Source: an uncultured Clostridia bacterium (GTDB lineage: Bacteria > Bacillota > Clostridia > TANB77 > CAG-508). From it: DNA of 64,000 nucleotides. The position numbers were made by a program, and so were the translations under genes. Below the pieces are notes generated by a model. That model did not search any database, was not told the origin of the DNA, and saw only the letters and a program-made list of their open reading frames with translations. The stretch covers positions 12,421 to 76,420 of the forward strand of contig CALXKK010000002.1 of assembly GCA_944388935.1 (NCBI GenBank), given 5' to 3'. The first letter of the stretch is position 1. Every line of letters starts with the position of its first letter. Positions 12,013-64,000 of this stretch are shown piece by piece.

Positions 12013-12060
12013 AAAAAATCACCTATATTACAATTATCTGTAATATAGGCTTTTTTTATT

Positions 12061-13014
12061 CTACTCATCATCATCCAAAAAATCTGTATAAGTTTTTAAT
12101 ATTTCCATTTTATAATTTCCTCTATTAATTTTATCATTTTTTGATACCTGTAATTCTACATCGTAAATTTCTTTTAATTTATTTAAATTACAATCATCAA
12201 TACCTTTTACAAAATTTATATCTGCTTTGTTAACTTCTATATTAACAACCTTAACTTTTACATTATATGATTTAATCATTTCGACAATTCTATCATACCA
12301 TATATCACTTGCAATTAAGCCCCTGAATTGCTCTATACTCATATCATCTATAGTTTGATTTTTTTCTCCTATTGATATACTCTTTATTTTAGCCTTATTT
12401 ATTAGTTCTATACTCTCTTTAAGTCTTTCTATTAATTGAACTTTTGATAATGGCTCAAACTCATCTTGTTCATATAAATTTTTAACAACATTACTATAAT
12501 CTATTTGACATGGAATTAATGTAATGTGTATTGGTTTTAATCCTATACTTTCTTTTACAGTATTTAAATCATCTGCAACAGTACTTTCTGGAAGTCCAAT
12601 TGTTAATTTTATCCCAATTGCAAATCGTGAAAATTTAATTTGCTTTGCAATTTTTTTAGCATATTTAAATTTATAATCTACACCGATATGTTTTAATATG
12701 TAATCATTTGAAGATTCTATTACTAGTTCTATTTCCTTTACTTTAAATTTTTTTAACATCTTTAAATTCTTTTTATCTACACTATCTGGATTTGATGTTA
12801 TTTTTATTTCAAATATTTTATATTTTTTTATTAATCCATTTAGTTTTAAAAGAATTTTTTCCTGATTGTCAATATTAATACTTGTAAAATCATCATGCAC
12901 TAGTTCTAAAATAATTTTTTTATCTTGGTTCTTCTCTACTTCTTTAATAATTTCATCTGTTATTTGTATTTCGTTCTCATTTATTTTTATAGGAATATAT
13001 ATTTTTTCTTTCAT
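12061..13014 (-). CDS. TIGR01212-family radical-SAM homolog lacking the CxxxCxxC cluster-binding motif (degenerate, probably non-catalytic)
   Basis: Aligns by eye to B. subtilis YtqA-type proteins across the TIM-barrel core (ELVIESSNDYILKHIGVDYKF ~ ELGLQTIHDKTLRKINRGHTY; TIGLPESTVADDLNTVKESIGLKPIHITLIP ~ IFGLPGEGPEEMMATADAVAKLPVQGVKIHLLH). The protein has no N-terminal Cys triad; its only cysteines are C170 and a C-terminal C286. It sits in the conserved clostridial position immediately downstream of rnc. Confidence 0.6.
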   Translation of the reverse strand: MKEKIYIPIKINENEIQITDEIIKEVEKNQDKKIILELVHDDFTSINIDNQEKILLKLNGLIKKYKIFEIKITSNPDSVDKKNLKMLKKFKVKEIELVIESSNDYILKHIGVDYKFKYAKKIAKQIKFSRFAIGIKLTIGLPESTVADDLNTVKESIGLKPIHITLIPCQIDYSNVVKNLYEQDEFEPLSKVQLIERLKESIELINKAKIKSISIGEKNQTIDDMSIEQFRGLIASDIWYDRIVEMIKSYNVKVKVVNIEVNKADINFVKGIDDCNLNKLKEIYDVELQVSKNDKINRGNYKMEILKTYTDFLDDDE

Positions 13015-13067
13015 TAAAATCTCCTCCTACAGCTACAACTTCCAAATCGTTAATTTTACATAGCAAA

Positions 13068-13736
13068 TTATAACTGCTCAATAGCTTTTTTAGCTGCTTC
13101 CATCTCTGCTGCTTTTTTTGATGTTCCTGTCCCTGTTGCTAATTGCTTTCCATTGCATCTTACTTCTGCTTCGAACACTTTACTATGGTCCGGTCCGCTT
13201 TCTTTTAAAATATTATATTCTATCTTAACATTTCCTTTGTGTTGTAACTTCTCTTGTAATACTGTTTTATAATCTTTTTGACCTACATTTTGACTAGCAA
13301 TTTTTATATCATCCTTTAAGTTAGAAATTATAAATTCTTTTACAGGTTCTAATCCTCCATCTAAATACATTGCTGCGATAACAGCTTCTACACTATCTGC
13401 TAATATAGCCTCATTTGTATTTCCATGGTTAGACAATTCGCTCTTTCCAAGATATAAGAAATCACCAAAATTATGCTTTGTAGCCACTTTATATAAACTT
13501 TTTTCGCAAACGACACTTGCTCTAACTTTAGTCATTTCTCCTTCATTTAAATTAGGATAGTTTTTATACAAATAGTTACTAGATATAAACTCTAATATGC
13601 TATCCCCTAAAAATTCTAATTTTTCATTACTTTGTACTTTTTTCTCGTATGCATATGATGTATGTGTTAATGCTGTTTTTAATAAGTTTTTATTTTTAAA
13701 GATATATCCTATATTTTTCTCAAATTCTTCTAACAT
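13068..13736 (-). CDS. rnc: Ribonuclease III
   Basis: The RNase III signature NEKLEFLGDSILEF is present, with a C-terminal dsRBD (GPDHSKVFEAEVR...KKAAEMEAAKKAIE). Confidence 0.95.
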   Translation of the reverse strand: MLEEFEKNIGYIFKNKNLLKTALTHTSYAYEKKVQSNEKLEFLGDSILEFISSNYLYKNYPNLNEGEMTKVRASVVCEKSLYKVATKHNFGDFLYLGKSELSNHGNTNEAILADSVEAVIAAMYLDGGLEPVKEFIISNLKDDIKIASQNVGQKDYKTVLQEKLQHKGNVKIEYNILKESGPDHSKVFEAEVRCNGKQLATGTGTSKKAAEMEAAKKAIEQL

Positions 13737-13864
13737 TTTTACCTCCTAGATGTTATCTATTATATAACATTTTTCAAGTTTTGCAAATAATTGTGGTCAA
13801 AATCTTCCAAATTATTCCACTAATACCTTTTTGAAAAGGAAAAAAGAAGATATTTCTATCTTCT

Positions 13865-15106
13865 TTAACGATCCTCATATGTTGGAGCTTCTTGACCACT
13901 CTTTTTAGCATCTGCTAGTTTAGGTCCATTTCTAATTATAACATCTCCTGTATTTCTACTTGTATCATATTGTGTTTTTGTATCTTGAGTCTTAACTCCT
14001 TCCATGCTTTTATTTGGTTCGAATTGTTGCATTTGTGCACCTTTAGTTTGAACATATTGATTCAATCTTTCTGCAGCTCTTAGTCCTTTATTTCTTACAC
14101 TATTTTTTGCGTCTTGAACAATTTCAGAAGCTTTTTGTGTAACTGCTGTTCCAGCATTTCCAACTTTTTCTACTGCACCTTGAATCCATTTCTTTGCAGG
14201 AGTAAATACATTATCCTTTAATTTTTGTGATTTATTAAGTGCAAATTTTGAAAAGAACATAGTAATTCTATTTCTTAATCCTGTTTTTTCTTTAAAGTCT
14301 GCAACTGCTCTATTTTTTTCATTCGCTGCTTCTAATAAACCTTCTTGCTTTGCATCTTCTAATTTTTTAATTTCTGCTTTTATCTCTGCCATTCTGGCTT
14401 TATTAGCCATAATTGCTTTTTTATTCTCATCGAATGCTTTGTTTTGTCTAGCATACGCTCTAGTTGATTCTAAGCCTTTTGCTCCCATATCACTTTCTAA
14501 TTTGGTTGCCTCAGCCATTGCTTGTTGATATTCATCAATATTGCCCTCTTGCATAGCTTTCATTGCTCTATTTCTTGCATCTTCTATTTGTGGCATCACT
14601 GACTTCATATCTTTTGCAGTATCTTTTGTACCTTTTTTTGCAGAGCTTTTAGCTTTTTTTAATGCATATTGTTCTGCTCTTCTTTCTGCATTTTCTAATT
14701 TAAGAGCTGTTCCTTCTTTTATTAATGCCTGTATTTGTGCATCATAAACACCTGCAACTTTTGCTGCACTTTTATTATATTCAGCTAGTAATTGATCTTT
14801 TTGAGCTGTATACTCATCATATAATTTAGAACCCTCTTTAATTTTTCCAACTGTTGTTGTTGCCAAACTTTCTACATTTTTTGATATAGTATCTGCACCA
14901 GTTTTTATTCCTTCTCTAGTTTTTGCAGCATTGTACGCACACCATACCTTAGCTGCTAGAGCTGCATTATCTTTTAATTGTTTAATTATATCTGCTGCTT
15001 TCATATCTTCTGGAGATACTGGTTCACTTTGTATTTCTTTATAAGCTTCATCCACAGTTGCTTGGTGCTCTGCGCTATTTACTTCGTTTTCTCTATTGTC
15101 TGCCAT
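13865..15106 (-). CDS. Coiled-coil, Ala/Lys/Glu-rich low-complexity protein (~413 aa), the large subunit of paralogous module A
   Basis: Predicted almost entirely alpha-helical, with one hydrophobic patch (RITMFFSKFALNKSQKLKDNVFTPAKKW). The most plausible start is ATG 15106 (MADNRENE...), with GGGGGA 8 nt upstream and 1 nt after the stop of the upstream small ORF. The ORF track's longer 429-aa version overlaps that small ORF in another frame. Confidence 0.6.
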   Translation of the reverse strand: MADNRENEVNSAEHQATVDEAYKEIQSEPVSPEDMKAADIIKQLKDNAALAAKVWCAYNAAKTREGIKTGADTISKNVESLATTTVGKIKEGSKLYDEYTAQKDQLLAEYNKSAAKVAGVYDAQIQALIKEGTALKLENAERRAEQYALKKAKSSAKKGTKDTAKDMKSVMPQIEDARNRAMKAMQEGNIDEYQQAMAEATKLESDMGAKGLESTRAYARQNKAFDENKKAIMANKARMAEIKAEIKKLEDAKQEGLLEAANEKNRAVADFKEKTGLRNRITMFFSKFALNKSQKLKDNVFTPAKKWIQGAVEKVGNAGTAVTQKASEIVQDAKNSVRNKGLRAAERLNQYVQTKGAQMQQFEPNKSMEGVKTQDTKTQYDTSRNTGDVIIRNGPKLADAKKSGQEAPTYEDR

Positions 15107-15107
15107 T

Positions 15108-15269
15108 CTACTCATCCCCCATTTCACGATCATATTCTTTTTCAAGTTCTTCACCTTTTGATTCGACCTTATCTGCTAAGTTCTTTAACTCATCAGATGT
15201 CATTTTATCTAAATCATATATTCGTCCGTCATAAACTATTCTCCCAAAATTTTCTGTTTCATCTGCCAT
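15108..15269 (-). CDS. Small acidic protein, 53 aa (MADETENFGRIVYDGRIYDLDKMTSDELKNLADKVESKGEELEKEYDREMGDE), the small subunit of module A
   Basis: Below the ORF-track cutoff and found by manual translation. Its stop TAG lies 1 nt before the start of the large gene. It shares the KM(T/S)x(D/E)ELxN motif with the small ORF at 22168..22323. Confidence 0.45.
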   Translation of the reverse strand: MADETENFGRIVYDGRIYDLDKMTSDELKNLADKVESKGEELEKEYDREMGDE

Positions 15270-56156: not shown

Positions 56157-59100
56157 TTACATTATTATTTCAATATTATATATTTCTCCATCATCTAATA
56201 ATTTTATTTCTTTGTCAAAAACTTCATTTCCATTGCAATACATCTTTTTTACCCCAGTATTTTTTCCATCAGGATTTCTTACAATAATATGATAGATACT
56301 ATTTTTATATTTGTAATTTATTTTATATTCTTTCCATTCTTTAGCAATACATGGTTCTATCCTTAAAATATTATTTGATATTCTTAATCCCAAAATATAT
56401 TCCACTCCTGCTGTATATAGCCAACCACTAGAACCTGTATACCAAGTCCAGCCTCCTCTTCCTGCTAAATTTCTACTACTATATACATCTGCTGCAACAA
56501 CATATGGTTCTACTTTATATTTATTAGTACTTTCTTTTGTTCGTGTATGCTCTATTGGATTTATTAGTTTAAACATTTCTACAGCTTTGTCTCCAAATCC
56601 AAGCATTGCTTCTGCAATTATTGCCCAAATAGCACCATGTGTATATTGTCCTCCATTTTCTCTTACACCTGGTAGATATGACTTTATATATCCCGGATTT
56701 ACTTTTCCATTTTCAAAAGGTGGGTCCAATAATTTTATTAATCCATTTTCTCTATCTATTAAGTGAGTTTCTAAACTATCCATGCTTATGAATTTTTTAT
56801 CATTATCTGCAGCTCCAGAAATAACACCCCAACTTTGCGAAATTCCATCTATTCTGCACTCTTCATTTTCCATACTTCCAAGCGGTGTACCATCATCCAT
56901 AAAAGCACGCTTAAACCATTTTCCATCCCAAGCATTTTTATTAATATTTCTTTTTAAGTTTTCCATAATTTCTGCATATTTCTCGTTTTCATCAATCTTT
57001 AAAACATTTGTCCATTTATTTAATATATCATATAAGAAAAATGCAAGCCATACACTTTCTCCCTTTCCTTTTACACCTACATTAGAAAATCCATCATTCC
57101 AATCACCTGAACCAATCTTAGGTAATCCATTTTCTCCGAAATTAAAAGCTCTTTCTATTGCTTTTTTGCAATGCTCGTATATACTTCCTTCTGTCTCGGA
57201 TGCATTATACAAACTATATCTTTCCATTTCTCCTTCTTCTAATATTTTTCCTTCCAAATAATTCGTTCTTACATCTAAAATTGTTCTATCTCCAGTGACT
57301 TCTATATATTCCAACACTGCATAAGGAAGCCATAATAGGTCATCCGAAAATCTAGTTCTTATTCCCATCTTAGTTTCTTTATGCCACCAATGCTCCACAT
57401 CACCTTCTATAAATTGATGCTTGCTGCTTTCTATTATCTGGTTCTTTAGTAAATTAATATTAATATATTTCATGTTCAAAGCATCTTGAAGTTGGTCTCT
57501 AAAACCTGTTGCTCCACCAGATTGATAATATCCTGTTTTTCCTAATAATCTGGATGCTATTGTTTGATAAACAAGCCATCCATTTAGTAATATATTCATA
57601 GATTCTAAAGGTGTTTCTACTTGCACTGTATTTATAATATTTTTCCAATATTCCTTTATTTCTTCCAATGCAGATTTGCAATTTTCTATATTAGTATATT
57701 TTTCTGTTAATTCCGGTATTTTGGATTTATCATCCTGTCCAAATATAATTGAAATTTCGGTAGATTCATATGGTTTTAATTCGATATTTATTTTTACAGC
57801 AACACATGACTCTTCTCCAATTCCATCACTATTATCCAAAGAATTAATAAATAAAGCATTTGGCATCTTTATATCACCATTACCAACAAATGATTTCTTA
57901 CTTCCTGTAAATGAATTTATATTTTTGTTGCAAGACACAAAACTTATTTCATTTAATAAATTATCAAATCTGTTAATTGCAAATACGATATTTTCTTCTT
58001 TCTTTACCTCTATTTTGCCATTTGTTTGTAGCTCATCTTCTCCTAATACAGGTTTTAAATAATAAAATATGCTTAATTTTTTTAGTTCATCTGTAGTATT
58101 TTTCAAACTAATTAAATTAATCTTTACTTTGTCTTTTTTGGGCACAAAGATTTGATTCTCCTGTATTATTCCATCTGCAGTATGATTATATTTTGCGTAT
58201 CCAAATCCATAGGTAATATAATAATCATTATCATCTTCTATTACTCTGTTTCCTAATGTCCAAAAATATTTACTCTCATTATTAATAAAATAAAGCATTT
58301 CCGATGGAATATCTTTACTAGTATAATTTGCAAATGCTGTTAATCTGTTTAATCTACTATTTGCATTCCAAATATATCCACCCGCACCATCTGTAACAAG
58401 TGTACCAAAATCTTTATTGGCAATTACATGACTCCAAACAGTTGGCAAGGTTATATCCTTGTTTGTTTTTATATAATATTCTTTTCCACTTTTAGAAAAA
58501 GCACCATATTCATTATAATATTTTAAGTTTTCTACCGAATCTATTTTTTCTAAAGCAGGAGTTCTTATTTTTTCTGTTGTTTTTAAATTAAGAGTTTCTA
58601 TTGGTGCACTAATAAATTTCTTTTGCTTATTGTATATTTTCTTAATTTTATTTAATTGATAATTTATATTGCCTAAATTTGCATCAATCACTAAATCTGA
58701 TGAAAACAAAATTAAATCATTATCCGCTTTAGTCAATTTATTAGCAATTAGTACAAATATTCCTGCTCTAATATTTTTTGTATAGTCCAAATGTGCATTT
58801 AAAATTGCTGTGTTTATATATTCTACAAGGTCTTCCTCTTCACTTAAGATTACAAATTCAATTTGAATATTTTTCACTTTTAGTATTTCGTATAATTTTA
58901 AAAGTTTATTTAAAAGATACATATCATTAATATTTTTTAATTTTAAAGTCAAAATCGGAAAATCTCCAGAAATACCAAATTTCCATAAATCGCTCTTTTT
59001 AAAGTTTTCGTTCTTAATTTTATTTCTATAAAACCATCTAACATAATTAGGTTTTAAAAGAAGTGTAATAAGTTTTTGGTACTCGGCAAGTTCATTTCCT

Positions 59101-62100
59101 TTTATTTGTAGATATCTTGATTCCTCGATTGCCTTAGCTTTCGAAATTTCAAAAATATTTCTTATAGCTTCTTGATTTCTAACTTTCTCTATATTAGAAA
59201 TTGCCTCTTCTTTTTCTTCTGCAACTGATATTATAAAATACAATTCTACAGAAGAATTCGCTGGAATTTTTAATGTCCTTTTTATAGCAACAATTGGCTC
59301 TGTAACTAGTCCAATAGAATTAGAAAATCTTTTTCTTTCTTTTATTTGCTTTGGTAAGCTAAAATTATTAGGACTATTAAATTTCTGCGCATCAATCTCG
59401 TATTCTAACTCTCCCATAGTTTCGTCTTCTGTATAAAAATTAACCCCTAAAAATATACTCTTACCATTTGCATCTCTTTTTCTTCTCTCTATTATTAAAG
59501 TTTGTTTTTCGGAATTAAAGTCATATCTTAAAAATAAATTATTAAAAGCTTTGTGTGCAATATCCGCATTTATATCTGATATAATCGGTTCAAAACTTCC
59601 TGTAACTTCTATTATTTCATCTTCATTTCCTATATTCGTAAATGCAATCTTTCTTATTTCTGTCGCTTCATTCTGGCTAACTGTTACATCTAATTTAGTT
59701 TCTATATTTCCGTCCAATCTCTCTATAGTATTGCTATCCGGCTTAAAAATAACTTTATATCTGCTAGGCTTACTTATATCTTGGCAATAGTTCGATGTCC
59801 AAATTTTATTTCCATTAATATTCCTTATAAAGAAATTAATTCCTTGTGCATAGTCATCTGTATATTTATACCTATTTATATAAATGTCATCAAACTTACT
59901 ATAACCATTTCCCTTTTCGTCCATTACTACTGTGTAATTTTGATTAGAAATAACATTACACCTATCAGCTTTTTCTACATCATCAAATTCGATTCTATAG
60001 TATGATTCATAGTCTTTATATTTTAATTTTTCTGGAACTTCTTTCTTTTGCTTTGTTATAATTATATCTTCCGGCATTTTCTCTTGTAGTAAAATTTCTG
60101 TTGCTTCTATTTCTGGGTTCTTAGAAAATCTTTGTTGAATAATATTTTTATGGAAAAAATTATTTATAGAAATTAAAATTAGAGCTTGGTGATGCGCCAT
60201 AAATGTTTTAACAACTTCTTTTCTTTCGCCTTCTTTTAATCTGCTTTTAGTATAATCTATAGATTCATATAAACCATACTTTCCAAAGGCTCCCTCAACT
60301 TCTAGTCTTTCTATATTTTGTAATACTTCTCTTGGATAATCGTAAATTGCAAGAACTGTGCCATAAGAAGAAACTACCATCTCATCCCCAAGGCCTCTTT
60401 TTAGACCAAGCCATGGAATTCCAAATGCTTTATATTGATAATTTGATTTTAAGTCTTTTAAATTAAAAGCTGATTCAGAAATTCCCCATGGTATATTTAA
60501 TTTCTCGCTATATTTCATTTGGCTCATAACCATAAATTTACAAGATTCATCTAGTAAACTTCCCTCATAGCTCTTCATATTTATATTTGGCATTAAATAT
60601 TCAAAAGCTGTACCAGACCACGAAATTAATCCTTTATATCCATCCATTGTAGTTAAGGTTCTATTTAAGCTAGCCCAATGTTTTGCCGGTACATCCTTTT
60701 TGCAAATTGCAATAAAACTTGCTTGTCTTGCCTCTGATGCTAGTAAATCATAATATGAATCTGTAAGTTTATTTTCGTTTACATCAAATCCAATAGAAAA
60801 CAACTTTGTAGAATTATTATATAGCAAAGAAAAATCTGTTTTATTTATAAGTTCATCCACCATTGCAATATATTCATTTATATTTTCATATAACCTATTA
60901 TGCTCCTTTAAGAATCGCCTTACAATATATAAATACCCCACAAAATTTCCACTATCTACAGTTGAAACATATCTTGGTTCCAAAGGTTTTAATGTTCTTA
61001 TGTCATACCAATTATAAAGGTGTCCATTCCATTTTTCTAGTTTTGTAATTGTATCTATCATATTTTGCAATAAACTTACACTAGCATAAATATTTTCGAA
61101 ACCTAAGTCGTATGCAGAAATTACAGACACCATTGCTAAACCTATATTTGTAGAAGATGTTCTTGTTACAATTTTGTTTTTTCTGTTTTCTTGATAATTA
61201 TCCGGTGGTAAATAATTATTTTCTTTTGTTAAATAATCCTTAAAATAATTCCATGTGTTATGCGCAATATTTAAAATATAATTTTGATGTTTTTTGTCTA
61301 TCCTTTTTAATGGGTCTTTTTCCGGAAGTTTTTTTCCAATTTCTAATGAAATAAATGGAGTTATTAACCATAAAATTCCTATAATTATTGTAATAATACT
61401 TGCTCTAAAAATATTAATTAAAACTGCAAAAATAAGGTTTGCAAACATATATCCTACATATGTGTCCAAATTATCTTGTTTGCTAGCTTCTGCCTCTTCT
61501 GCTGTTGTCCATTCTAATAACTTTTTCTTACTAAAATATTTCCTATAAACAGCTTGTATCACAGCCTTTATTTCTATATAGGTTTTTGTTGGCAAAAAAG
61601 CAATATCAAACAAAGCTTTAACGCCAATACCTTTCCATCCATTTACCATAGGTGTAAAAGATTTTTTGAATTTCTCTCCATCTTTTCTAAAAATAATTTT
61701 GTTAACTAATTCTAATACTAAAGTTATACAAATTGAAACAATTGCAAGTAGTATAATACTAAATTTATTTAAATAAATTCCTATCACTAATAAACTTAAC
61801 GAAAATAAATCTACTATGCTTCTTCTTAGATTATCAAATATTTTATACTTTGATAATTTATTAAGAGGATTTTTTATTGTTTCGTTTTTTCCATTTTTAA
61901 TTTTTCCGCAAAGCCAATTACATATTTGCCAATCTCCACGTATCCATCTATTTAATCTTGTTGTAAATGAAATAAAATTGGTTGGGTATCCGTCCATTAA
62001 CAATATATCTGATGCTAGTCCACATCTTAAATAAGAACCTTCTAATAAGTCATGACTTAAAACAGTATTCTCTGGAATTGCATCTTTCATTATGTTATAA

Positions 62101-64000
62101 AAAGTATTAAGCTCGTATATTCCTTTCCCTGTGAATATTCCTTCATCAAAATTATCTTGGTAAAAATCGGAAATGGCATTTGTATATAAATCTGTTCCAG
62201 CAGAACCTGCAAAAATTTTGCTAAACCAAGATTTATTTGCACTTACCAAATCTATTCCTACCTTTGGTTGTATAATTCCATGTCCCTCTATTACAACCCC
62301 ATCTTTTAGAATTGGTTTATTTAATATATGTTCCATCGTTCCGATTAATTCGAATGCAGAATTTAAAACAAGGTTTGTATCAGAGTCCAATGTAATAATA
62401 TACTTTATCTTTGGTATCTCTTGCATATTGCTAATTGTATTAGCTATAAAATCTTCATCTGTTCCATTTACTAGGAACGCATTAAACTGCATTAGCAGTC
62501 CTCTTTTTCTTTCCCAACCTAAGTACTCATTTTCGCCTTCATTCCATCTTCTTTTTCTGTATAAAAAATTAAATATCTCCTTATTATATTTTTGGTTTAA
62601 TTCATTTGCAAAATGTATTCCTGCATTTATAATTTCCTTGTCGCCTTTTCTTTTTTCTATTTTAGAAGTCTTACAATCCCCAAGCAATGTAAAATATAAA
62701 TTATCGCTTTTATTTGCCAAATAATACACTTCTAATTTTTTAAACATCTCTTCTACTTTTTTACCAGAATCAACAATCGTTGGTACAACAACCATTGTTG
62801 CTTGTTCTTTTGTAATTTTATTTTGCAAATCCATCTTTGGTAATAATTTAGGTTTAACAATTTTGCTTAAAATATATTGCATTGTTTGATTCAATATTTC
62901 TTGTATTGGCAATAGTAAAATTAAACTTAAAAAATAATTTCTATATGCTTTTCCAAGTAAAACAGAAAACATAATAGAAAGTCCCCAAACGACTGCAATT
63001 ATTAAATTTAATTTTGTATTATTATTAATTTTAATCGGATTATATTCGATTTCTTTATATAATTCTTTCGTTCCTTCATCTATTAAATAATAGCCAATAT
63101 GGCTCTTCTTACCTTCTTTTCCTGTAGCTAACTCTACTAATTTTTTTGCAATATATACTTCTGATATCTTAGTTTTTTTAGATAATTCTTTTATTTTTCC
63201 TCTGTAATATGATTTAGTTTTATAATCCATTTTGTCATATACTTCTGCTGGATCCATTTTTAATATTTCTTCTACACCATTTAATTTTTCGAATATCTCT
63301 TGAAAATCTATTCTAGAAATATTTTTTAATGTTGTAATACAATTTCCCATCAGCACTTTCTTTATTGCAATATCAAAATGTTCCTTTTTTATAACATCAT
63401 TTATGTTTGTCCCCATCTTTTCTACAGCTTCTTCTAGAGCTTCTATATAATCGTAACTATCTTTATCCGTTTTCTTTAATTTGTATGACATATATTCTAT
63501 AAATGGATATTTCATTTCGCCATATCCAAATTTATAGCTTTTATATGGCTTTTTATTAAATACTTGATGTTCTTTATCCTTTAATTCTACTAGTCTTTCG
63601 ATTATATTTTCTACTCTATATTTTTGCATTTGGCTTGCATAAATCTTTTCGCAAATATCTTTTATATTTTCTATAATACTAATTTTTATAAATAATTCTA
63701 TATTCCAAATTTCATCCATATTTAGTGTTTTTCTTTTTTGATATGAACTTAGCATGAATTCTAAGTTTTCTTTATTTATATTACTATCTGTATATGTGCA
63801 CATCTCCTTTGCCAAAATATATATTCTAGCAAAACCCGCATAAGGACCGTTATCCAGTCCCAAAAACTTCTTATATTTCTTTAAATCTAACTCCTCTTTT
63901 ATTTGTTGCATTCTTTCTTCTATAATATAGTAATTATCTAAAAGCCACTCCCCCGCTGGATGAATATCTATTCCTAATTTTATATGTTCATTTAATAAAT
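56157..64000 (-). CDS. Cyclic beta-1,2-glucan synthase-like giant protein (GT84 glycosyltransferase + TM region + GH94 glycoside phosphorylase domain); N-terminus lies beyond the window
   Basis: At least 2614 codons open to the window edge, since the frame continues upstream of the ORF-track Met (HPAGEWLLDNYYIIEERMQQ...). The GT-A DxD is KYIITLDSDTNLV. Multiple TM helices are present (e.g. IAVVWGLSIMFSVLLG, VDLFSLSLLVIGIYLNKFSIILLAIVSICITLVL). The C-terminal GH94 signatures are SGDWNDGFSNVG (the catalytic DWND) and NGGQYTHGAIWAI. Confidence 0.85.
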   Translation of the reverse strand, partial: LLNEHIKLGIDIHPAGEWLLDNYYIIEERMQQIKEELDLKKYKKFLGLDNGPYAGFARIYILAKEMCTYTDSNINKENLEFMLSSYQKRKTLNMDEIWNIELFIKISIIENIKDICEKIYASQMQKYRVENIIERLVELKDKEHQVFNKKPYKSYKFGYGEMKYPFIEYMSYKLKKTDKDSYDYIEALEEAVEKMGTNINDVIKKEHFDIAIKKVLMGNCITTLKNISRIDFQEIFEKLNGVEEILKMDPAEVYDKMDYKTKSYYRGKIKELSKKTKISEVYIAKKLVELATGKEGKKSHIGYYLIDEGTKELYKEIEYNPIKINNNTKLNLIIAVVWGLSIMFSVLLGKAYRNYFLSLILLLPIQEILNQTMQYILSKIVKPKLLPKMDLQNKITKEQATMVVVPTIVDSGKKVEEMFKKLEVYYLANKSDNLYFTLLGDCKTSKIEKRKGDKEIINAGIHFANELNQKYNKEIFNFLYRKRRWNEGENEYLGWERKRGLLMQFNAFLVNGTDEDFIANTISNMQEIPKIKYIITLDSDTNLVLNSAFELIGTMEHILNKPILKDGVVIEGHGIIQPKVGIDLVSANKSWFSKIFAGSAGTDLYTNAISDFYQDNFDEGIFTGKGIYELNTFYNIMKDAIPENTVLSHDLLEGSYLRCGLASDILLMDGYPTNFISFTTRLNRWIRGDWQICNWLCGKIKNGKNETIKNPLNKLSKYKIFDNLRRSIVDLFSLSLLVIGIYLNKFSIILLAIVSICITLVLELVNKIIFRKDGEKFKKSFTPMVNGWKGIGVKALFDIAFLPTKTYIEIKAVIQAVYRKYFSKKKLLEWTTAEEAEASKQDNLDTYVGYMFANLIFAVLINIFRASIITIIIGILWLITPFISLEIGKKLPEKDPLKRIDKKHQNYILNIAHNTWNYFKDYLTKENNYLPPDNYQENRKNKIVTRTSSTNIGLAMVSVISAYDLGFENIYASVSLLQNMIDTITKLEKWNGHLYNWYDIRTLKPLEPRYVSTVDSGNFVGYLYIVRRFLKEHNRLYENINEYIAMVDELINKTDFSLLYNNSTKLFSIGFDVNENKLTDSYYDLLASEARQASFIAICKKDVPAKHWASLNRTLTTMDGYKGLISWSGTAFEYLMPNINMKSYEGSLLDESCKFMVMSQMKYSEKLNIPWGISESAFNLKDLKSNYQYKAFGIPWLGLKRGLGDEMVVSSYGTVLAIYDYPREVLQNIERLEVEGAFGKYGLYESIDYTKSRLKEGERKEVVKTFMAHHQALILISINNFFHKNIIQQRFSKNPEIEATEILLQEKMPEDIIITKQKKEVPEKLKYKDYESYYRIEFDDVEKADRCNVISNQNYTVVMDEKGNGYSKFDDIYINRYKYTDDYAQGINFFIRNINGNKIWTSNYCQDISKPSRYKVIFKPDSNTIERLDGNIETKLDVTVSQNEATEIRKIAFTNIGNEDEIIEVTGSFEPIISDINADIAHKAFNNLFLRYDFNSEKQTLIIERRKRDANGKSIFLGVNFYTEDETMGELEYEIDAQKFNSPNNFSLPKQIKERKRFSNSIGLVTEPIVAIKRTLKIPANSSVELYFIISVAEEKEEAISNIEKVRNQEAIRNIFEISKAKAIEESRYLQIKGNELAEYQKLITLLLKPNYVRWFYRNKIKNENFKKSDLWKFGISGDFPILTLKLKNINDMYLLNKLLKLYEILKVKNIQIEFVILSEEEDLVEYINTAILNAHLDYTKNIRAGIFVLIANKLTKADNDLILFSSDLVIDANLGNINYQLNKIKKIYNKQKKFISAPIETLNLKTTEKIRTPALEKIDSVENLKYYNEYGAFSKSGKEYYIKTNKDITLPTVWSHVIANKDFGTLVTDGAGGYIWNANSRLNRLTAFANYTSKDIPSEMLYFINNESKYFWTLGNRVIEDDNDYYITYGFGYAKYNHTADGIIQENQIFVPKKDKVKINLISLKNTTDELKKLSIFYYLKPVLGEDELQTNGKIEVKKEENIVFAINRFDNLLNEISFVSCNKNINSFTGSKKSFVGNGDIKMPNALFINSLDNSDGIGEESCVAVKINIELKPYESTEISIIFGQDDKSKIPELTEKYTNIENCKSALEEIKEYWKNIINTVQVETPLESMNILLNGWLVYQTIASRLLGKTGYYQSGGATGFRDQLQDALNMKYININLLKNQIIESSKHQFIEGDVEHWWHKETKMGIRTRFSDDLLWLPYAVLEYIEVTGDRTILDVRTNYLEGKILEEGEMERYSLYNASETEGSIYEHCKKAIERAFNFGENGLPKIGSGDWNDGFSNVGVKGKGESVWLAFFLYDILNKWTNVLKIDENEKYAEIMENLKRNINKNAWDGKWFKRAFMDDGTPLGSMENEECRIDGISQSWGVISGAADNDKKFISMDSLETHLIDRENGLIKLLDPPFENGKVNPGYIKSYLPGVRENGGQYTHGAIWAIIAEAMLGFGDKAVEMFKLINPIEHTRTKESTNKYKVEPYVVAADVYSSRNLAGRGGWTWYTGSSGWLYTAGVEYILGLRISNNILRIEPCIAKEWKEYKINYKYKNSIYHIIVRNPDGKNTGVKKMYCNGNEVFDKEIKLLDDGEIYNIEIIM

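Follow-up and report, generated by a model that had tools for sequence, protein, structure and literature searches.

A radical-SAM homologue lacking the cluster-binding cysteines beside rnc in an uncultured Clostridia bacterium, and its RNase III-linked parent family

Radical S-adenosylmethionine (SAM) enzymes are defined by the cysteine triad (CxxxCxxC) that binds their [4Fe-4S] cluster, and conserved descendants without the triad are rare and reveal other roles. We analysed such a descendant in a 64,000-nucleotide stretch of DNA, referred to here as the window, from an uncultured Clostridia bacterium (GenBank assembly GCA_944388935.1, contig CALXKK010000002.1, positions 12,421 to 76,420). 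The gene is a minus-strand open reading frame (ORF; 13014..12061) of 317 amino acids whose start codon lies 53 nt beyond the end of rnc, the gene of RNase III. Several described systems are related to its product, which we call the window protein. MnmL is a radical-SAM enzyme of the tRNA xnm5U pathway with a role in converting cmnm5(s2)U to nm5(s2)U, and the superfamily contains many paralogue subgroups (bioRxiv 10.1101/2023.12.21.572861; PMC13228596). The MnmL/YtqA/YhcC model (TIGR01212) is the top-scoring curated hidden Markov model (HMM) for the window protein and for its intact relatives, all of which have a related barrel and a GLPxxT segment. However, the scores (35 bits for the window protein and 88-114 for intact forms) stay well below the 180-bit cutoff of that family, which also has another C-terminal domain and another genomic context. 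Elp3 (TIGR01211; PDB 6ia8, 5l7j, 8pty_C) gives the best structural matches, with TM-scores of 0.53-0.63 and E-values of ~1e-9 to 5e-8, and has the same Radical_SAM and Radical_SAM_C layout as the parent family of the window protein. In contrast to Elp3, the window protein has no GNAT/KAT domain and no cluster, carries a KH-like domain instead, and scores 21.5 bits against the 350 of the ELP3 HMM. A named precedent for a cluster-less derivative is PsgB, the 'HemN-related non-iron pseudo-SAM protein' (NCBIfam TIGR04419). PsgB belongs to a HemN-like branch, whereas the window protein scores 24 bits against 300 with its model, making the likeness an analogy rather than membership. The C-terminal domain has the predicted beta-alpha-alpha-beta-beta-alpha order of type I KH domains (vigilin, PNPase, Rrp4, IGF2BP3), with vigilin as the top PDB hit (E = 1e-3). 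The GXXG loop of those domains is GHKK in the active enzymes, whereas it is G-I-D-D in the window protein, in which KH_1 was not found.

The closest relatives are members of an unnamed RNase III-linked radical-SAM (rSAM)/KH family of Clostridia and other bacteria, which carry no annotation beyond 'radical SAM protein' and are represented by P0274, P0301 and the protein encoded at L017:5842-6876. Their homology to the window protein is full-length at 42-46% identity, they occupy the same slot after rnc, and a YTDFLE tail is found in the nearest clade. Compared with these intact proteins, the window protein is without the CxxxCxxC loop, the GG, Gln and RGH motifs, AGPxHPAF and the basic GHK(K/R) loop; it is also ~40 residues shorter and evolves faster. 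The explanation that we favour, with fair confidence, is that it is a catalytically dead, folded and selectively maintained orthologue of these enzymes, retained for a non-catalytic function connected with RNase III and/or its RNA. The cluster-less pseudo-SAM category is already known from PsgB; as far as we found, the present clade, its parent family and the link to RNase III have not been described.

The original prediction for this gene, made from the sequence alone, had reported a TIGR01212-family homologue with only two cysteines and no triad. Both cysteine statements hold, since C169 and C275 are the only cysteines of the 317 residues and CxxxCxxC is absent. Pfam Radical_SAM (PF04055) matched with 27.9 bits against a gathering score of 29.5, at profile positions 29-153 only. 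The TIGR01212 match reached 35.2 bits, where the cutoff is 180, and began at model position 57. Both matches are weak but real, and both begin past the triad columns. The HemW, HemZ and Elp3 models score nearly as high as TIGR01212. What is left of the family assignment is the barrel similarity, including the TIGLPEST segment at residues 137-145, but not the membership. A frame or assembly error masking the triad, which the prediction had named as a possible refutation, was considered and rejected: the gap to rnc is short, the N-terminus is shared by independent assemblies, and the ATG at 13014 is the first start past an upstream in-frame stop, which rules out a hidden N-terminal exon or extension.

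The catalytic motifs of the intact homologues are replaced or missing throughout the protein. Relative to intact orthologues there are three deletions, of 18 residues after residue 13, 6 after residue 27 and 12 after residue 219, and the 18-residue gap coincides exactly with the LGCPxxCxFCNQxxISGQ cluster loop. In the first strand retained in front of this gap, I7 and P8 are invariant in dead (triad-less) and intact forms alike. Further along the chain, FFGGSFT of the intact proteins is LVHDDFT in the window protein, GVQS is VIES, RGH is VDY (GVDY in the barrel), RIYPV is TLIPC, AGPxHPAF is gone, and IGHK(K/R)EN in the loop of the KH-like domain is KGIDDCN. None of the residues expected to contact SAM (GG[E/S], the Gln of G[VL]QS and the Arg of RGH) is present. 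With Radical_SAM_C (PF16199), intact homologues reach 67-74 bits, the triad-less P0122 reaches 34.6 and P0011 15.4; the window protein has no match, but the region still aligns. From these sequences we strongly infer that the window protein would neither bind a cluster nor cleave SAM. In the C-terminal tail, the motif YTDFL is common to the window protein and the nearest intact orthologues, and a model of the isolated domain predicts it as a short terminal helix.

The intact relatives are numerous. We searched 1.84 billion representative proteins with a dead-clade profile, which matched 2,581 representative clusters at 50% identity. Most of these are 320-370 amino acids long with the N-terminus IIPIFIPHxGCPxxCxFCNQ, and the profile aligns to the intact proteins over about positions 8-305 of its 317. 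The nearest 120 intact-size proteins (350-361 amino acids, 36-46% identical to the window protein) have the triad in 120/120 and end in ILKTYTDFLEE. In sister gut Clostridia, intact positional orthologues of 358 amino acids carry CPHDCIFC, are 42-46% identical to the window protein, and lie in the order plsX-acpP-(unknown ORFs)-rnc-rSAM-yitT-(GGDEF)-ogg, which is the neighbourhood of the window. Because the slot in the sister genomes is the same, the window gene is the positional orthologue of an active-looking radical-SAM enzyme. Intact members combine Radical_SAM (~90 bits), Radical_SAM_C (67-74 bits) and the C-terminal domain, and no curated NCBIfam model reaches its cutoff on them (TIGR01212 88-114 against 180; ELP3 74-102 against 350). 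By full-length homology and by its place after rnc, the window protein belongs to this unnamed, widespread, RNase III-linked family, whose layout is Radical_SAM, Radical_SAM_C and a KH-like C-terminal domain.

The link between this family and RNase III is seen in both gene order and gene fusion. The intact gene has rnc directly upstream at L017, L018, L022-L024 and L028 (with an 8-nt overlap at L028) and not at L027, so that rnc adjacency holds in 6/7 separately encoded intact contexts, and it holds in all the triad-less contexts examined. On an unrelated metagenomic contig, P0263 (L021:1278-3032) is a single polypeptide of Ribonuclease_3, dsrm, Radical_SAM and Radical_SAM_C. Since RNase III is both neighbour and fusion partner, active members likely act on RNA, and the parent family is probably an RNA-modifying enzyme. 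Other unusual architectures were seen in the family: P0142 has the appearance of a dsRBD-rSAM read-through or fusion, and three intact-family proteins, P0231 (584 amino acids), P0217 (717 amino acids) and P0232 (566 amino acids), are lengthened by additional sequence at the N- or C-terminus.

The absence of the triad is not a peculiarity of this single genome. A database search returned 664 homologues; among the best 120, nearly all are 295-320 amino acids long, the triad is absent in every one, and one conserved cysteine is held in common in an LIPC/IIAC context. An alignment of 15 diverse triad-less members (49-80% identical) contains 64 invariant columns, with invariant stretches at SSNDYIL, GLPE.T..DD.N, WY..I...IKS.NVKVK and the C-terminal T(Y)TDFL, and the N-terminus MKEK(I/L/V)YIPI recurs across independent assemblies. 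The carriers comprise 16 species-level genomes of uncultured Clostridia, 'Clostridium sp.' or CAG:354-type gut metagenome-assembled genomes, and 16/16 of their loci have the order rnc, window-gene homologue, yitT, ogg, as in the window. Other triad-less representatives, among them P0122, P0125, P0126, P0133 and P0134, keep a full-length loop from which the triad cysteines are gone. These forms retain part of the glycine motif and, in most, AGPxHP, and have lost Q and RGH in all; those checked at L020, L025 and L026 follow rnc in 3/3. The source-database names of the triad-less P0024 and P0058 are 'histone acetyltransferase (RNA polymerase elongator complex component)' and 'radical SAM superfamily'. 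Such 'radical SAM' or 'histone acetyltransferase (Elongator)' labels on triad-less forms are probably over-annotation, and through them counts of Fe-S enzymes in reduced gut Clostridia would be inflated.

A neighbour-joining tree with 100 bootstraps groups 22/22 triad-less representatives together as one clade (bootstrap 95). This clade lies, on long branches, inside the intact low-GC clade, and the group of the window protein is terminal within it (bootstrap 100). Pfam Radical_SAM scores fall stepwise (~90, 48.5, 43, 32.7 and 27.9 bits). The simplest history begins with a single inactivation, goes on through progressive erosion and ends in deletion. Repeated, independent triad losses were considered as an alternative history, and the single clade counts against them, though long-branch attraction could exaggerate its monophyly. 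Only P0167 lies elsewhere: it has FPPRCSFC, with the first triad cysteine replaced. P0167 is otherwise a member of the intact clade and may represent an independent incipient loss or a sequencing error.

An AlphaFold2 model of the window protein, built on a 55-sequence alignment, has a predicted local distance difference test score (pLDDT) of 91 and a predicted TM-score (pTM) of 0.84. A structural search of the PDB with this model gave 113 matches at E <= 0.001, and each of the 50 listed is a radical-SAM enzyme. The radical-SAM domains of Elp3 from archaea, bacteria and eukaryotes come first (query-normalised TM-score ~0.53-0.63), followed by RimO, MiaB, HemN and viperin. In the model, the radical-SAM barrel is retained though the cofactor sites are gone. 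In the C-terminal domain, a beta-alpha-alpha-beta-beta-alpha element order is predicted, and a profile of the domain searched against PDB sequences places KH domains on top, with vigilin at 1e-3 and then PNPase, Rrp4 and IGF2BP3. KH_1 matches 26/55 family members (24.6 bits in P0301 against a gathering score of 21.5), though not the window protein itself. The predicted structure and the profiles together indicate a KH-like domain, in whose core G271 and N276 are kept invariant in the window protein. The original prediction regarded this part as a C-terminal extension of ~100 residues. It is not an add-on, as the intact homologues carry the same KH-like domain, and the domain is ancestral.

Selection on the gene was compared with that on its neighbours by the ratio of non-synonymous to synonymous substitution rates (dN/dS, ω). 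In the triad-less clade, ω is 0.12-0.26 for the window-gene homologue, 0.01-0.04 for rnc, 0.04-0.10 for yitT, 0.07-0.14 for ogg and 0.01-0.07 for plsX, and within the same genome pairs the dead gene has a dN 4-34x as high as rnc. In the intact sister clade, ω is 0.07-0.11 for the enzyme, 0.09-0.14 for rnc, 0.15-0.17 for yitT and 0.11-0.16 for ogg, and the enzyme is constrained to the same degree as rnc. From this pattern, against rnc and against the intact sister clade, constraint on the triad-less gene is relaxed yet not abolished. Regional pooled ω is 0.28 at the N-terminus, 0.17 in the barrel, 0.32 in the Radical_SAM_C remnant, 0.15 in the long helix and KH-like domain, and 0.02 at residues 303-317; this last piece, the tail region, is the most constrained of those tested. 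With the intact orthologues in the same slot of sister genomes and the triad-less clade nested in the tree, these values, a sign of purifying selection, bear out the proposal that the gene has been retained at its ancestral position after rnc. As a separate observation, rnc itself is tighter in L001-L016 and the window (dN/dS 0.01-0.04) than in L018 and L022-L024 (0.09-0.14).

Composition fits the same relaxation. The window gene has the lowest GC content (22.3%) and its product the highest share of K+I+E+N (46.7%) among 15 window genes. The Lys/Ile/Glu-rich character pointed out in the original prediction is therefore real, although it exaggerates a genome-wide AT bias and fits weaker constraint in an AT-biased genome. 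The net charge is -1 in the window protein, +2 across the dead clade and +8 at the median of the intact sisters.

Comparison of the dead and intact alignments shows where constraint has moved. Both together have 29 invariant columns. In the dead forms, 8 positions have switched to another invariant residue (H to Y114, E to D149, Y to I167, V to C169, K to Y173 and others), 13 further positions are newly invariant, and 44 positions have lost constraint.

Taken as a sequence of events, the favoured explanation would run as follows. The [4Fe-4S]-binding CxxxCxxC would have been lost once in a low-GC lineage of uncultured gut Clostridia, the SAM-contact motifs (GG, Gln of GVQS, RGH) would then have decayed, and the cluster loop would have been deleted outright in the terminal clade that includes the window gene. 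The protein would have been kept for an ancestral non-catalytic activity, most likely the binding of RNase III and/or a shared RNA. Candidate binding surfaces are the barrel face (SSNDYIL, GLPEST..DD.NT), the KH-like core and the YTDFL-acidic tail. Association with RNase III and/or a shared RNA is suggested by the invariant gene coupling and the fusion, by the promoter-like and terminator-like sites around the two genes, and by the conservation of the tail region. Fe-S-dependent RNA-modification genes have been lost outright in streptococci (PMC12632869); the present gene, unlike those, was kept in a cluster-free form, which indicates a second function.

Several observations weigh against this explanation. 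The non-synonymous rate relative to rnc means that the role of the dead gene may be minor. The KH assignment rests on modest sequence scores, and Foldseek with the isolated C-terminal domain returned RNase E fragments and FliH first (E ~0.01), with the V-ATPase stalk and a weak NusA KH match. The RNA-binding version is weakened by the loss of the basic GHK(K/R) loop and by the net charge of -1, and for these two reasons we slightly favour a protein partnership over RNA binding. The original idea of a repurposed non-catalytic descendant, structural or RNA-binding, accordingly stands for the loss of catalysis by its motifs and not clearly for RNA binding. The 21 switched or newly fixed residues leave space for a new activity. 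Long-branch attraction could have inflated the single-loss topology, and literature searches on the family, on rnc-linked radical-SAM genes and on triad-less rSAM, PsgB or pseudo-SAM proteins returned nothing relevant.

The competing explanations differ in what the remaining constraint is taken to mean. If the old barrel had been neofunctionalised, doing other chemistry without cluster and SAM or binding a small ligand, the 8 switched and 13 newly invariant positions would be its signature, Y114, D149, I167, C169 and Y173 among them, with C169 invariant in groups A and B of the terminal clade and the polar barrel motifs ESSNDYIL and PEST.ADD still constrained. We consider this unlikely, as the 44 positions that lost constraint outnumber the 21 gained or switched, overall constraint is relaxed, and there is neither a recognisable catalytic constellation nor a family match pointing to another activity. 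The opposite possibility is a slowly decaying gene, whose ORF would persist by inertia or polar effects in the rnc operon while the protein is functionless. The gene is indeed among the fastest-evolving of the neighbourhood, with dN 4-34x that of rnc and the lowest GC content (22.3%) of the 15 genes sampled, and its Radical_SAM and Radical_SAM_C scores drop progressively. But every pair gives a dN/dS of 0.12-0.26, and the tail region one of 0.02; >100 clusters and 16 species-level genomes keep an unbroken frame of 295-320 amino acids; members as little as 50% identical have 64 invariant residues in common; and the predicted fold is confident. Slow decay is thereby already largely refuted and very improbable.

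Many pseudoenzymes pair with active relatives, and the window protein may by this general pattern be a regulatory or scaffolding partner of an active paralogue elsewhere in the genome; its conserved fold and tail could mediate heterodimerisation. Against this, the dead gene and the active enzyme of sister genomes share the single ancestral slot, which argues for replacement rather than duplication, and the 64-kb window holds no second copy. A search of the window for an intact paralogue found no CxxxCxxC in any ORF of at least 100 amino acids, which would also fit a lineage with few radical-SAM and Fe-S enzymes. We regard such a partnership as quite improbable. Finally, a still active radical-SAM enzyme with non-canonical ligands, or an artefact concealing the triad, draws on nothing beyond the residual superfamily similarity. 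With one conserved cysteine, no His/Cys set, GG, Q and RGH gone, 53 nt to rnc without an alternative frame, and the same MKEK(I/L/V)YIPI N-terminus in independent assemblies, it is already refuted at the sequence level and we give it next to no weight.

A broader proposal extends the favoured explanation of a dead but maintained orthologue to the whole family. Tentatively, RNase III-linked rSAM/KH proteins may have a second, non-catalytic job, for example as an RNase III partner or specificity factor that docks through the YTDFL-acidic tail and takes part in the processing of rRNA, tRNA or mRNA. In that case the triad-less clade would represent a naturally occurring separation-of-function allele from which the Fe-S chemistry was shed, perhaps as Fe-S economy in a reduced gut lineage, with the second job alone retained. 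If true, this would bring to light a new bacterial RNA modification and also a new RNase III cofactor. Gene order and fusion tie the widespread parent family closely to RNase III, and the dead clade marks the surfaces on which selection continues once catalysis has been lost. Handles for finding the partner or substrate of the whole family may come from the GLPEST/SSNDYIL face, the KH-like core and the YTDFL tail.

Table 1. Coordinates in the window of the rnc and pseudo-rSAM unit and of the segments of the window protein.
Feature	Position	Strand	Basis
Whole ORF, cysteine-triad-less radical-SAM homologue (pseudo-rSAM), 317 amino acids	12061..13014	-	ORF list, HMMs, AlphaFold2
Residues 1-13 (MKEKIYIPIKINE), retained first strand; cluster loop deleted directly after residue 13	12976..13014	-	Alignments
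HDD (residues 40-42), aligned with the glycine motif FFGGSFT that binds SAM in intact homologues	12889..12897	-	Alignment
Remnant radical-SAM barrel, residues 33-170, dN/dS 0.17	12505..12918	-	Pfam, alignments
ESSNDYIL in barrel; Gln of GVQS changed to Glu	12694-12717	-	Alignment
GLPEST in barrel	12580-12597	-	Alignment
LIPC in barrel, C169 codon	12508-12510	-	Invariant C169 in groups A and B, the terminal dead clade
Degenerate Radical_SAM_C-like region, residues 171-226, 12-residue deletion, AGPxHPAF lost, dN/dS 0.32	12337..12504	-	PF16199, alignment
Long helix and KH-like domain, residues 227-308	12091..12336	-	Predicted secondary structure, profile searches
Loop GIDDCN, residues 271-276, where intact homologues have invariant basic IGHK(K/R)EN	12187-12204	-	Loop comparison
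C-terminal tail YTDFLDDDE, residues 309-317	12064..12090	-	Conservation, dN/dS of 303-317
GGAGGAG ribosome-binding site, 6 nt 5' of the ATG	13021..13027	-	Sequence
rnc (RNase III), directly upstream of the window gene, probable co-transcribed partner	13068..13736	-	ORF list, locus comparison
Promoter-like site TTGCAA-16-TATAAT, 5' of rnc	13759..13787	-	Consensus match only
Terminator-like hairpin, 13 pairs and T run, right after the window-gene stop codon	12021..12050	-	Hairpin scan

The promoter-like and terminator-like sites (Table 1) enclose rnc and the pseudo-rSAM gene as a unit, and the two genes are probably co-transcribed. In the scan for terminator-like hairpins, 7 sites were observed against 0.7 expected from shuffles. 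The hairpin at 12021-12050, between the window gene and yitT, has a perfect 11-13-bp stem with T runs on both strands, and its 3' arm holds AGGTGA, the would-be ribosome-binding site of yitT. It could gate yitT translation besides terminating transcription. Between acpP and rnc, a 429-residue Lys/Ala/Glu-rich ORF (13865-15154, minus strand) has no Pfam match and a GC content of 33.5%, above that of its neighbours; at the same position, the sister loci have unannotated ORFs of 372-459 amino acids and one of 53-81 amino acids. Farther away, a giant ORF of 2,584 amino acids lies at 56157-63911 on the minus strand.

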